Shown: positions 2,173 to 4,526, counted from the first letter of the stretch. The stretch is 4,533 bases of DNA from a virus (IMGVR_UViG_2778261182_000006), one strand, 5' to 3'. Notes: generated by a model from the letters alone, not told the origin. Translations and numbers: made by a program.

Positions 2173-2574
2173 ATGATGAACGCCCTAGAAGTATCTATGT
2201 ACAGAATCAGCAAGCTTCTTCAGGAAACTGGATGGAGCCAGGCTGAGCTTGCCCGTAGAATTGGTGTGACACAACAAACTGTTCAACAATGGGCCAGCGG
2301 TAAGGCCACCCCTAAAGCCTCAAGTTTGGATAAACTGGTTGAGGTTACAGGGCATCCATTGCATTGGTTTTTATTGCCTCCTGAAGAAGGGGAGCAAATT
2401 TTCACCCCTGACACGATGAAAATTGGTCCTCGCCAACGCGAACTGCTCCAGGCTTTTAGTGCGTTTCCTGAGGAAGACCAAGAAAAAATGCTTCAAGAAA
2501 TCAAAGACAAGAAAAAATCAATGGAAGAAACCATTGCCCGGTGGTTGGCGGCGCAAAAAAGCCGCCGGGCGTAA
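2173..2574 (+). CDS. paaR2: XRE-family HTH transcriptional regulator, CI/DicA-like; regulator of the three-component TA operon and likely prophage immunity repressor
   Basis: 133-aa ORF with an HTH (SQAELARRIGVTQQTVQQWASG) and a C-terminal region typical of the dimerisation part of DicA-type repressors. No Shine-Dalgarno upstream. First gene of an operon with the antitoxin and ParE genes. Confidence 0.8.
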   Translation: MMNALEVSMYRISKLLQETGWSQAELARRIGVTQQTVQQWASGKATPKASSLDKLVEVTGHPLHWFLLPPEEGEQIFTPDTMKIGPRQRELLQAFSAFPEEDQEKMLQEIKDKKKSMEETIARWLAAQKSRRA

Positions 2575-2604
2575 CCACTACTGTACAAAAAGAGGAGTTA
2601 TGCC

Positions 2605-2796
2605 ATGAGTACAGCCCTTTCTCCGATAGTTTCAGAATTCGAAACTACCGAACAAGAAAACAGTTACAACGAATGGCTGCGCGCTAAAGTGGCGTCAAGC
2701 CTTGCAGACCCTCGCCCCGCAATTCCACATGACGAGGTAATGGCTGAAATGGAAAATCTTATTGCTCAAATTGCTGTAACTAACAGGAGCGAGTAA
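2605..2796 (+). CDS. paaA2: Small antitoxin of a ParE-family toxin (PaaA2-like)
   Basis: 63-aa acidic ORF (MSTALSPIVSEFETTEQENSYNEWLRAKVASSLADPRPAIPHDEVMAEMENLIAQ...) with GAGGAG about 7 nt upstream of the ATG. Its stop overlaps the toxin start (TAATG at 2794-2798). Size and position match the PaaA2 antitoxin as I recall it. Confidence 0.8.
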   Translation: MSTALSPIVSEFETTEQENSYNEWLRAKVASSLADPRPAIPHDEVMAEMENLIAQIAVTNRSE

Positions 2797-3083
2797 TGTT
2801 ACCCATTTTATGGCTACCATCTGCTCGCGATGATTTGCGTCAGATCGTAGCCTATATTGCTAAGGAAAATATTCCTGCAGCACGCAGACTAAAAATACGT
2901 ATTGAAACGTCTGTTTTAGCCCTCTCTGAGCACCCATATCTATATCCGCCAAGTGATCGAGTATCCGGTTTGCGGGAAATTGTGGTTCACCCTAATTATA
3001 TCGTTTTGTACCGAGTAGCAACTTCAAGCATTGAAATTGCAAATATTGTGCATGCCCGCCGACAATTTCCCTTCTCTATCTGA
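2796..3083 (+). CDS. parE2: Type II toxin, RelE/ParE superfamily (ParE-like)
   Basis: 95-aa ORF (MLPILWLPSARDDLRQIVAYIAKENIPAARRLKIRIE...HPYLYPPSDRVSGLREIVVHPNYIVLYRV...) of typical ParE size and pattern. AGGAG (2785-2789) precedes it, with translational coupling to the antitoxin; a terminator follows. Confidence 0.85.
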   Translation: MLPILWLPSARDDLRQIVAYIAKENIPAARRLKIRIETSVLALSEHPYLYPPSDRVSGLREIVVHPNYIVLYRVATSSIEIANIVHARRQFPFSI

Positions 3084-3099: not shown

Positions 3100-3125
3100 A
3101 CTCCCTCATTCGAGGGAGTTTTTTT
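3100..3125 (+). terminator. Rho-independent terminator ending the regulator-antitoxin-toxin operon
   Basis: Seen directly: stem ACTCCCTC (3100-3107), loop ATTC (3108-3111), stem GAGGGAGT (3112-3119), overlapping a run of 7 T (3119-3125), 17 nt after the parE stop. Confidence 0.75.
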
Positions 3126-3135
3126 GCTCAAAGCC

Positions 3136-3179
3136 ACAATTAAAAACTGTTGACACAAAACAGTTTTTAATTGTAGATT
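3136..3179 (+). promoter_or_regulatory. pL/dicBp-like early promoter embedded in a 39-bp perfect palindromic operator
   Basis: Seen directly: ACAATTAAAAACTGTT (3136-3151) and its exact reverse complement AACAGTTTTTAATTGT (3159-3174), separated by GACACAA. Consensus -35 TTGACA at 3150-3155; -10 candidate TAGATT at 3174-3179 (18-bp spacer). The half-site recurs at 2121-2136 in the OR-like region. Confidence 0.55.
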
Positions 3180-3362
3180 GTTTTCACCGCCCCACCCCGT
3201 CCCACAGAACGCAGGGCAATACTTCGAGTTACCAGGCAGTGGTCAGGGGTTAAGTAGCCAGCCCGAGGCGTAAGAACATGACGGCAGGGTTCAACTTTAA
3301 TAACTATGCAGCAGGTTTTTGTTCCGCTACCCCGGCGTTAAGGGGAAACAGAGGATTTCTCA

Positions 3363-3719
3363 GTGGGCGAAGTCAAACATCAGAATGGAAGGCATCCCGG
3401 GATCGGCAAAGAAGCAGCAATGGCGCTTTATATTGACATCAGCGCCATTGCCGGACAGGTAAGAGTTATTAGAGCGGTAACTAAGCAGTATGCGCCTTTA
3501 CTTCAGAAAGTCTCTGGTGAGTGCACCGAAGATATTGTCAACGATTTCGTCATCGAACTGCGAGGACTCATCTTCAGTTACAAGGTGACCACAATTTTTG
3601 CAGATGGCTCCCGCGAAACTGTCAGAGCCCTGCGGCTTAAAGGATGTGTCAAAGACTTCGCCACCACATTCTGGGCAAGAAAACTTGATTGTATTCATAA
3701 CCAATTTCCTCTCGAGTAA
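3363..3719 (+). CDS. Alternative hypothetical protein (118 aa, GTG start), mutually exclusive with the antisense zinc-ribbon ORF
   Basis: Plus-strand ORF in the same direction as the early operon; GAGGA (3351-3355) lies 7 nt upstream of the GTG. It uses only AGA/AGG arginine codons in its unique 5' part and has no recognisable motif. Its openness over 3498-3698 may be an antisense in-register artefact of GNC-rich coding on the other strand. Confidence 0.3.
   Translation: MGEVKHQNGRHPGIGKEAAMALYIDISAIAGQVRVIRAVTKQYAPLLQKVSGECTEDIVNDFVIELRGLIFSYKVTTIFADGSRETVRALRLKGCVKDFATTFWARKLDCIHNQFPLE
3498..3698 (-). CDS. Small 4-Cys zinc-ribbon protein (about 66 aa), unknown function
   Basis: Minus-strand ORF (track 3498-3704, TTG start; more likely ATG at 3696-3698) with C-P-E-C ... 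C-K-N-C spaced about 21 residues apart, a classic zinc-ribbon signature, plus an acidic C-terminus. GAGAGG (revcomp of 3708-3713) lies about 9 nt upstream of the ATG. It conflicts with the plus-strand ORF 3363-3719; at most one is real. Confidence 0.45.
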   Translation of the reverse strand: MNTIKFSCPECGGEVFDTSFKPQGSDSFAGAICKNCGHLVTEDESSQFDDEIVDNIFGALTRDFLK

Positions 3720-3790
3720 CAGACCCCTCAGAGGATACCACCTCGCCTGACGTGGTTAAAAGCAGGCAACGCTAACCACAAGGAGCCGAC

Positions 3791-4006
3791 ATGCAGAAAC
3801 GAGAACCCGTCATCATCGCGCCAGACTATACCGATGATGAAATTTACGAATGGATGTGCGGGAAGATACGCGCCATTAATGACCTGAAGCAGGCTGCTGA
3901 CTATAAAGAGCGCCTCTCTAAAGAACTGGCGTCAGCGGAGCAGGATATTACCACTCTGGCAAAAAGCGCGGCTTTAAACGTTTCGCGAGTGACTGAAAAC
4001 CACTGA
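3791..4006 (+). CDS. Hypothetical small protein (71 aa) of the early rightward operon
   Basis: Strong SD AAGGAG (3780-3785) 5 nt before the ATG. Plausible, non-repetitive protein (MQKREPVIIAPDYTDDEIYEWMCGKIRAINDLKQAADYKERLSKELASAEQDITTLAK...). Occupies the position of the small ydfA/B/C-type genes upstream of DicF in Qin-type prophages. Confidence 0.6.
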   Translation: MQKREPVIIAPDYTDDEIYEWMCGKIRAINDLKQAADYKERLSKELASAEQDITTLAKSAALNVSRVTENH

Positions 4007-4009
4007 CTG

Positions 4010-4396
4010 ATGAGGTTGATGATGGAATTTAAAGATTTACCAATGCCATTCCAGGAAATGGCAGCGAATATAGTTCGTTCCCAACTGGCGACTCTTGACC
4101 TGAGTACCGTAGAAAAAGAAACCATCGATAATATATCCGGTAACGTGCGTCGCGCCTTTATCGGGTTGTACGAAGAGAAGCAACTCTCTGATAACCAGGA
4201 TTTACATGAAAAATACTTCCTGGAATTAATGGACATCATTGATAAGGGATTTGGCTTGTTAATGAAACAGAAAGGGATTCGAATGAACCCCCTTGAAAAT
4301 TACTTCGTAACAAGAAGCATTAATTCCTGTGATTTAAAGCATCCCGCCACAGACGGGAGTGTTACAGTTAGCCATAAGATTTCGATTAATCATTAA
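4010..4396 (+). CDS. Hypothetical protein (128 aa by track; true start may be ATG 4019 or 4022)
   Basis: ORF begins 3 nt after the upstream stop. GAGG (4012-4015) would serve an ATG at 4022 (6-nt spacing). No recognisable motif. Followed by the DicF-like element. Confidence 0.6.
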   Translation: MRLMMEFKDLPMPFQEMAANIVRSQLATLDLSTVEKETIDNISGNVRRAFIGLYEEKQLSDNQDLHEKYFLELMDIIDKGFGLLMKQKGIRMNPLENYFVTRSINSCDLKHPATDGSVTVSHKISINH

Positions 4397-4464
4397 AATC
4401 AATAACTATTTCAATAAGTGATGCCATCTCGTTGCATTTTGTTGAATTCATCTTACGTAATACT

Positions 4465-4526
4465 TCATGTTGATTAGCACCTTTGGCGGCATCAGTTTTC
4501 ATTGCTGGCTGATGTCCGCCCTTTTT
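4465..4526 (+). ncRNA. dicF: DicF-like small RNA with its intrinsic terminator (5' end is processing-defined and approximate)
   Basis: The segment ...CCTTTGGCGGCATCAGTTTTCATTGCTGGCTGATGTCCGCCCTTTTTAAAGTGA resembles my recollection of E. coli DicF (...GTTTGGCGGTATCAGTTTTACTCCGTGACTGCTCTGCCGCCCTTTTT). Shared blocks are TTTGGCGG-ATCAGTTTT and CCGCCCTTTTT. It lies at the end of an early operon under an operator-controlled promoter, as DicF does in the dicB operon. Confidence 0.5.
4485..4526 (+). terminator. Rho-independent terminator (3' hairpin of the DicF-like RNA)
   Basis: Seen directly: stem GGCGGCATCAG (4485-4495) pairs with CTGATGtCCGCC (4509-4520, one bulged T), 13-nt loop, then a run of 5 T (4522-4526). 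Confidence 0.6.

Follow-up and report, generated by a model that had tools for sequence, protein, structure and literature searches.

A YdfC orthologue and a MEFKDLP-head protein, related to the two parts of natural fusion proteins, in the early-left operon of an Escherichia coli lambdoid prophage

The window, by which we mean the whole stretch of 4,533 nucleotides analyzed here (viral sequence IMGVR_UViG_2778261182_000006), covers the immunity and early-left region of an E. coli lambdoid prophage of the Qin/Rac/CP-933P type. Its minus strand carries a replication organizer (411 to 1358), a YdaT-family gene (1382 to 1807), and a YdaS/Cro-like gene (1791 to 2063). On the plus strand, a DicA/PaaR2-like helix-turn-helix repressor (2173 to 2574) is followed by a PaaA2 antitoxin (2605 to 2796) and a ParE toxin (2796 to 3083), with a terminator after parE (3100 to 3126). 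In alignments, the PaaA2 and ParE proteins of the window prove homologous to, but clearly diverged from, the solved O157:H7 PaaA2-ParE2 proteins, and they are 75% and 68% identical, respectively, to the copies in L015, a true CP-933P-type locus whose ParE2 is 100% identical to the crystallized protein (PDB entry 5cw7_B). The repressor shares 99% identity with that of IHE3034-type prophages and 42% (residues 37 to 133) with that of L015. Judged by these identities, positions 2173 to 3083 represent a second immunity and toxin-antitoxin allele of the three-gene PaaR2-PaaA2-ParE2 arrangement. The window is a mosaic whose segments are widely shared; none of the complete E. coli genomes carries it in one piece, and no place in them covers 80% of it.

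Downstream of the toxin gene lies a PL-type sigma-70 promoter of an early-left (dicBF-type) operon, TTGACA-18-TAGATT (3150 to 3179, plus strand; 10/12 matches). It is overlapped by an operator palindrome made of two inverted copies of ACAGTTTTTAATTGT (3136 to 3174, located by 15-mer matches), and an inverted repeat with 16-bp arms was found at the same place (about 3136 to 3179). The 15-mer ACAGTTTTT(T/A)ATTGT forms inverted pairs both here and in the repressor/cro intergenic region (2098 to 2136), and the operator half-site has four matches in the window versus 0.02 expected by chance. These two pairs are likely to be the operators of the window's immunity type. The promoter is the positional counterpart of PL933P in CP-933P, for which ~100-fold repression by PaaR2 and by YdaS has been shown (PMC8630535), and we infer that the window copy is active. 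An earlier note on this DNA had placed two small ORFs in a repressor-controlled early operon, between the toxin-antitoxin module and a DicF-like RNA. Both statements agree with the present analysis: operator pairs stand at the repressor/cro region and at the promoter, the homologous PL933P is strongly repressed, and the ORFs have PaaA2/ParE upstream and a DicF match downstream (4474 to 4521). The authors of the CP-933P study could assign no function to the ORFs 3' of PL933P (PMC8630535). In L015, the order ydfA-ydfB-ydfC-ORF2-dicF-dicB is found 3' of the toxin-antitoxin module, where PL933P sits; from this gene order, the two ORFs of the window, here ORF1 and ORF2, are therefore homologous to the unassigned ORFs of CP-933P.

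Several features lie between the promoter and ORF1. The ~160 nucleotides right after the promoter (3186 to 3348) are 86 to 100% identical across ~56 related loci, although the promoters, operators, and repressors of those loci differ; K-12 Qin retains only the last ~28 nucleotides of this leader. Within it, an ATG at 3278 opens a frame that continues into ydfA in ydfA-type loci. A structured RNA was considered for the leader and rejected, as the predicted fold is no better than that of shuffled sequences (z = +1.0), and an Rfam search of the window (E ≤ 1) matched DicF as the sole family, with no match in 3186 to 3348. Further along, and still within the plus-strand leader, a minus-strand ORF (3498 to 3704) encodes a 68-residue CxxC...CxxC zinc-ribbon protein of the NCBIfam ECs_2282 family (57 bits; cutoff, 37 bits), with a promoter-like site at 3715 to 3688. 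Opposite to it runs a 118-residue ORF (3363 to 3719, plus strand) that matches phrog_21318 (E = 1.9e-66) and is annotated instead in some phage records. Because the available copies are 99 to 100% identical, substitution patterns cannot tell which of these two strands is the coding one.

ORF1 (3791 to 4006, plus strand) encodes 71 residues, from an ATG at 3791 to a TGA at 4004 to 4006, and is preceded by an AAGGAG Shine-Dalgarno sequence 5 nucleotides before the ATG (3780 to 3785, as read from the sequence). Its product is 60% identical to K-12 YdfC over 67 residues (BLASTP, E = 1e-28), and a profile search aligned residues 1 to 66 with phrog_1744 (E = 7e-28). The similarity to the YdfC family extends over the whole ~71 residues and includes the N-terminal MQKREPVIIAPDYTDDE(I/L)YEWM; ORF1 also shares the location of the family, ahead of dicF and dicB in a dicBF-type operon under repressor control. 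Syntenic RefSeq loci name the gene ydfC, while the RefSeq label for the window's allele is "hypothetical protein" only. By similarity and position, ORF1 is an orthologue or allele of YdfC from the K-12 Qin prophage (b1573). Of 5,426 complete E. coli genomes, 2,992 contain the conserved 5' part of ydfC, and homologues occur in the isolated temperate phages Evi, Tritos, Kati, and SfIV. In SfIV, a viable Shigella phage, the YdfC-like ORF (L096, 3486 to 3707, plus strand) is 42% identical, unannotated, and the first after a CI-like repressor. Published work assigns no function to ydfA, ydfB, or ydfC (PMC5069750, PMC10448788, PMC11551758), with K-12 YdfC still given as uncharacterized in one such listing (PMC11551758), and a 2026 preprint used YdfC merely as raw material for directed evolution.

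An alignment of 16 YdfC sequences contains 19 invariant columns. Residues 1 to 22 (MQKREPVIIAPDYTDDEIYEWM) are acidic and almost invariant between alleles, and the remainder differs by up to 45%. AlphaFold modeled ORF1 (pLDDT 89) as one long amphipathic helix (residues 15 to 70). Consistent with this shape, one heptad register (positions 25, 28, 32 ... 67), an a/d stripe without breaks, is 73% hydrophobic across the 16 sequences, against 18 to 19% in the least hydrophobic registers, and both the length and the heptad pattern are retained between alleles that are only 55 to 60% identical. The protein is acidic (pI 5.0), and its highest 19-residue Kyte-Doolittle mean is 0.43, i.e., it has no membrane segment. 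The dN/dS ratio of ydfC is 0.47, compared with 0.43 for the wobble-aligned antisense frame, a frame that typically scores near the sense frame but is not open in homologues. Because the two score about equally, dN/dS alone is weak coding evidence for YdfC. A 112-residue antisense ORF (3901 to 4239) was dismissed as spurious, since it is broken by two to four stops in 37/37 distinct homologous segments. We also set aside the idea that YdfC mimics the tail of FtsZ through its PDYTD (PDYLD at the C terminus of K-12 FtsZ): the likeness spans five residues, is equaled in 2.9% of shuffled sequences, and was picked post hoc.

ORF2 (4022 to 4396, plus strand) encodes a phrog_6937 protein of 124 residues. 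The longest ORF in this frame runs from 4010 to 4396, and the 128 residues and 3-nucleotide gap given by the earlier note appear to be an artifact of choosing the first ATG. Every ORF2 homologue starts with MEFKDLP; the phrog_6937 profile (E = 4.6e-81) aligns its positions 1 to 124 of 124 with residues 5 to 128 of the 128-residue form; and RefSeq holds 124-residue proteins, labeled "hypothetical protein," at the homologous place. A GAGG Shine-Dalgarno sequence stands 6 nucleotides before ATG 4022 (4012 to 4015) and is conserved in both junction types among 82 loci, and one of those junction types (32/82 related loci) has no in-frame start ahead of that ATG, which led us to reject the start at 4010. 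The most likely start of ORF2 is thus ATG 4022, for 124 residues; the gap between ORF1 and ORF2 would accordingly be 15 nucleotides rather than 3.

The coding status of ORF2 is clear: 33 distinct DNA versions contain no stops, and the dN/dS ratio (0.245) is the lowest of the six frames, with regional values of 0.16 in the head, 0.23 in the middle, and 0.29 in the tail. Taken together with a YdfC that keeps its length and heptads at a ratio of 0.47, these values bear out the assumption that both ORFs are genuine genes. ORF2 homologues are 83 to 99% identical, and the full-length gene is present in 717/5,426 complete E. coli genomes. The structural model has low overall confidence (pLDDT 61), with helices at residues 8 to 23, 32 to 53, and 59 to 83 scoring ~70 and a low-confidence tail (residues 90 to 124) that is left unmodeled. 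ORF2 has a pI of 5.5 and a highest 19-residue Kyte-Doolittle mean of 0.53, with no hydrophobic segment. YdfC and ORF2 are thus both predicted to be soluble, acidic, helical proteins.

Only the N-terminal part of ORF2 is widely shared. This head module (residues 1 to 55, MEFKDLP...NVRRAF.GLYEE; 4022 to 4186, plus strand) accounts for the matches to phrog_1363, 2151, 9419, and 33007, which cover only residues 5 to 59/69 of the 128-residue form. An exhaustive profile search against 1.84 billion representative proteins (E ≤ 0.001) retrieved only 55 clusters, nearly all of them matching only the first ~50 to 65 positions. The tails of these proteins differ in length and sequence and are unrelated to one another (phrog_25397, 23433, 30817, and others); a Pfam search of the longer members for an informative fused domain returned none. 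ORF2 has the motifs EFKDLP, IAA, and NVR.AF.GLY of the head group in its ~55-residue N-terminal module and, in addition, matches the phrog_6937 profile over its full length. On these motifs and profile matches, ORF2 is assigned to an unnamed family of small lambdoid phage proteins, which we refer to as the MEFKDLP-head family. The head is kept as a protein, at 26 to 44% identity, in loci with different DNA. Even the genes for the most distant members follow a CI-like repressor, in first or second place, and precede KilR or DicB, RecE/RecT, and an integrase; those of Stx phages lie in the exo-xis region, between DUF2303 and ea22-like genes.

The slot occupied by ORF2 ends downstream at a DicF-type small RNA with a terminator hairpin (4474 to 4521, plus strand; Rfam RF00039, E = 5.5e-6), which starts 78 nucleotides after the ORF2 stop and scores 38.5 bits, below the Rfam gathering cutoff of 48 bits. 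Across loci, the distance from ORF2 to dicF is 78, ~305, or ~545 nucleotides, with ~305 or ~545 in most. Two loci (L014 and L007) carry a DicF sequence identical to that of the window, followed by dicB. Relative to K-12 DicF, the terminator hairpin and the 3' half are kept, while the sequence 5' of TTTGGCGG reads UUAGCACC and not UUUCUGGUGACG. This difference explains the score below the cutoff, and the target range of the window's DicF, to go by the altered 5' sequence, may differ from that of K-12 DicF. A 38-residue minus-strand ORF (4386 to 4502) resembles, at residues 5 to 38, the C-terminal part of a 73-residue phrog_7249 protein (WP_000202161.1) whose gene, in other strains, runs toward ORF2. 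Because it is cut short at the start of the DicF segment and overlaps DicF in antisense, this ORF looks like a remnant.

The earlier note described the two genes as a tightly linked pair, which is at odds with their distribution: the linkage is not obligate. The gene preceding full-length ORF2 is ydfC in 32 of the 82 loci and ydfA, directly and without ydfC, in the other 50. Conversely, ydfC occurs without a head protein in K-12 Qin, strain GB089, and phage SfIV, and head proteins occur without ydfC in Stx phages. ORF2 alleles are found in free combination with either type of YdfC allele and with several immunity types, and there is thus no sign of coevolving partners. On its left, the ORF2 cassette ends sharply at the stop codon of whichever gene comes before it, and it carries its own Shine-Dalgarno sequence. 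Positions 3995 to 4021 (the last YdfC codons, the stop, and the spacer) differ little from the ydfA-ORF2 junction of other prophages (compared with L010, 3470 to 3487), a likeness that marks the recombination border of the cassette. The slot between ydfC or ydfA and dicF varies in content; it is empty in K-12, holds a 148-residue minus-strand gene in GB089, and in SC407 and PPompW contains ORF2 and a convergent ORF that is unrelated. Minus-strand genes of 144 to 148 residues, unrelated to ORF2, occupy the slot before dicF in E. coli GB089 (L095, 3306 to 3752) and phage SfIV (L096, 3679 to 4113) and could, by their orientation, be expressible in a lysogen. The convergent small ORFs found after head-family genes were examined as a conserved partner and rejected, as they belong to unrelated families. 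A type II toxin-antitoxin pair formed by ydfC and ORF2 was also rejected; the genes are apart in most loci and have no Pfam, NCBIfam, or PADLOC match.

A connection between the two proteins is suggested by natural fusions. Three clusters of 149-residue proteins (P0228, P0238, and P0239; 62 to 87% mutual identity, 10 member sequences), known from metagenome assemblies only, match the YdfC profile at residues 1 to 69 (hhalign probability, 97.2%; E = 3e-11) and the ORF2 head at residues 92 to 141 (probability, 96.5%; E = 7e-10). In P0239, a start codon is absent at the fusion junction. The fusion gene follows a CI-like repressor and is part of an early-left operon. The isolated phage Evi (LR597642) and PPompW prophages likewise have ydfC followed by a head gene, an order retained at 26 to 44% identity. 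Recurrent fusion of proteins that are neighbors elsewhere is a classic sign of a shared function or complex, and the fusion of a YdfC-like helix to the ORF2 head points to such a shared function.

Searches for recognizable domains and folds were largely silent. Pfam, NCBIfam, and PADLOC scans of both proteins gave nothing above threshold; at E ≤ 0.1, Pfam returned no match for ORF1 and only a subthreshold VLPT match for ORF2, and PADLOC-DB returned no defense-system component for either protein. Profile searches of both proteins against the PDB gave only matches with E > 0.1, with YdfC drifting to GCN4 coiled coils (a likeness of shape only), and a Foldseek search of the YdfC helix against the PDB gave no match. 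Against viral models, the best Foldseek match was a 52-residue phi191 protein (42% identical, E = 0.54), which is probably in the same family. The claim that neither ORF has a recognizable domain is therefore upheld for Pfam, NCBIfam, and PADLOC but has to be qualified for ORF1, which belongs to the named YdfC family. The same applies to its description as uncharacterized: the 71-residue ORF is real and its function unassigned, but the family (60% identity, E = 1e-28) already had a name. That the function is unassigned agrees with searches by structure and sequence, which yield only generic helical matches, and with the literature, which lists ydfC as uncharacterized.

The specific roles that the earlier note had raised by analogy with kil, dicB, and sieB find no support in these proteins, which have no membrane segment and no defense-system match. 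Neither is a member, by sequence, of the DicB, Kil, or KilR families of cell division inhibitors, and in relatives DicB and KilR have genes of their own, located further downstream. SieB proteins span the membrane, and we rejected a SieB-type exclusion protein given the Kyte-Doolittle maxima of 0.43 (YdfC) and 0.53 (ORF2). The position of the SfIV YdfC-like gene as the first ORF after the repressor brought up a lambda N-type antiterminator. Lambda N has a basic, arginine-rich N-terminal RNA-binding motif, and this candidate was rejected for YdfC, with its pI of 5.0 and acidic N terminus. In K-12, the toxicity associated with the operon is due to dicF and dicB. A strain with Plac-ydfABC-ydfD in which dicF and dicB were deleted had normal growth and morphology without filamentation (PMC5069750), and the lambda resistance conferred by the operon was reported to be DicB dependent (PMC6832061). 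These data concern the K-12 YdfC allele and those phenotypes only, and ORF2 lies outside them.

What is observed of the two genes, namely their family identity, coding status, operon position, modular architecture, and natural fusions, leads us to a reading that we regard as the most plausible one while holding it tentatively: YdfC and ORF2 may act together, providing accessory, nontoxic early functions through protein binding. Both would be made only once the prophage repressor releases the promoter at 3150 to 3179, and for that reason they would be active early during induction or infection but not in the lysogen. The head of ORF2, a predicted helical hairpin, would pack onto the YdfC helix, and the two would make up a small helical bundle. 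An amphipathic helix of 56 residues should not be stable by itself and needs a partner; because the head is a helical hairpin, a bundle of YdfC and head is the arrangement that we favor. The invariant N-terminal peptide of YdfC and the exchangeable tail of ORF2 would then be the contacts for a host or phage protein. Under this reading, in which the physical association and the mode of action are both inferred, neither protein would be a toxin, a membrane protein, or a cell division inhibitor. A more specific version, which we think unlikely, has YdfC and the head as two halves of one helical effector that acts on a conserved host or phage target, with the tails setting specificity. If so, E. 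coli prophages would encode the effector in two genes, and a different phage lineage would make it as one fused protein; temperate phages of E. coli and Shigella would widely share this unstudied early function, encoded right after the repressor gene; and the effector might, for example, tune the lysis-lysogeny decision as lambda CIII does or counter host defense.

The distribution of the genes could also be explained by independent cargo, with a variable slot before dicF, ORF2 as one of several exchangeable cassettes, acting alone on its own target, and YdfC as a separate function. The loci with ORF2 but no ydfC (50/82), the ydfC genes without ORF2 in K-12, GB089, and SfIV, the differing slot contents (nothing in K-12, the 148-residue gene in GB089, the extra ORF in SC407 and PPompW), and the sharp left border and own Shine-Dalgarno sequence of the cassette are all in keeping with this view. 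We nevertheless consider it somewhat unlikely, as recurrent and diverged fusions of the YdfC helix to the head are hard to explain by unrelated functions, and the gene order is the same at 26 to 44% identity.

Host-takeover, division-inhibitor, superinfection-exclusion, or defense cargo, the reading proposed by the earlier note, seems improbable to us; such proteins would damage or reprogram the host or shut out other phages. It draws on the company the genes keep, since the operon also holds DicF and DicB (with KilR and YdfD in relatives) and gives lambda resistance in K-12 (PMC6832061), and on allelic mosaicism and exchangeable tails, which are typical of conflict genes. Against this stand the DicB dependence of the resistance, the attribution of toxicity to dicF and dicB, the normal ydfABC-expressing strain, the PADLOC search without matches, the Pfam search with one subthreshold ORF2 match at E ≤ 0.1, and the absence of a membrane segment such as SieB-type proteins have. 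Moreover, as the genes are repressed in the lysogen, their products cannot be a standing defense. A role in cis, in which translation guards the polycistronic RNA or tunes DicF processing or read-through and the proteins are dispensable, would fit the invariable placement of ORF2 directly upstream of dicF (at 78, ~305, or ~545 nucleotides). It strikes us as very improbable given the purifying selection on amino acids along ORF2 (dN/dS, 0.16 to 0.29), the conservation of the head as protein (26 to 44% identity) despite different DNA, and the head proteins of Stx phages, which sit between DUF2303 and ea22-like genes and not directly before dicF.

Returning to the joint action of YdfC and ORF2, the fusion with the head is the first lead for two genes that previously had none. 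YdfC is among the remaining uncharacterized K-12 genes and shares its operon with DicF and DicB, which affect cell division, metabolism, and phage resistance, DicF also having a part in O157:H7 virulence regulation. Should no partner or phenotype emerge, YdfC and ORF2 would stay ordinary small accessory phage genes; both belong to catalogued but uncharacterized families, and nothing suggests a new kind of system.

Among known systems, lambda CIII, a small inhibitor of FtsH with an amphipathic helix, made from the pL operon, offers a likeness of kind only, as another small helical early-left protein; it is a lead and not a finding, as the lengths differ and ORF1 is without any Pfam match. In phages of this type, the role of CII is taken over by YdaT (PMC8630535, PMC9986795). 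Within the phrog_6937/head group (e.g., ArgO145 gp22 and PPompW_070), ORF2 is a full-length phrog_6937 protein and shares ~55 residues with the other groups, and the genes of all of them lie in the early-left operons of lambdoid phages from E. coli and Shigella. Their tails, in contrast, are unrelated to that of ORF2, and every member is unnamed, belongs to no Pfam family, and lacks a described function. YdfC of K-12 Qin is the closest known relative of ORF1 (71 versus 72 residues, 60% identity, the first 17 residues identical) and is likewise encoded upstream of dicF in an operon controlled by a DicA-type repressor, whereas the helix region of the window's protein is a different allele. In Qin, moreover, ydfA and ydfB precede ydfC, where the window has the minus-strand zinc-ribbon gene instead, and ORF2, present in the window, is absent after ydfC. 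CP-933P of O157:H7 (Jurenas et al. 2021, PMC8630535) differs from the window in its repressor specificity (42% identity, residues 37 to 133), its diverged toxin-antitoxin proteins, and the genes between PL and ydfC. It nonetheless has the same succession of repressor, PaaA2-ParE2, PL, and small ORFs, and the CP-933P-type locus L015 carries both ydfC and an ORF2 that is 90% identical to that of the window.
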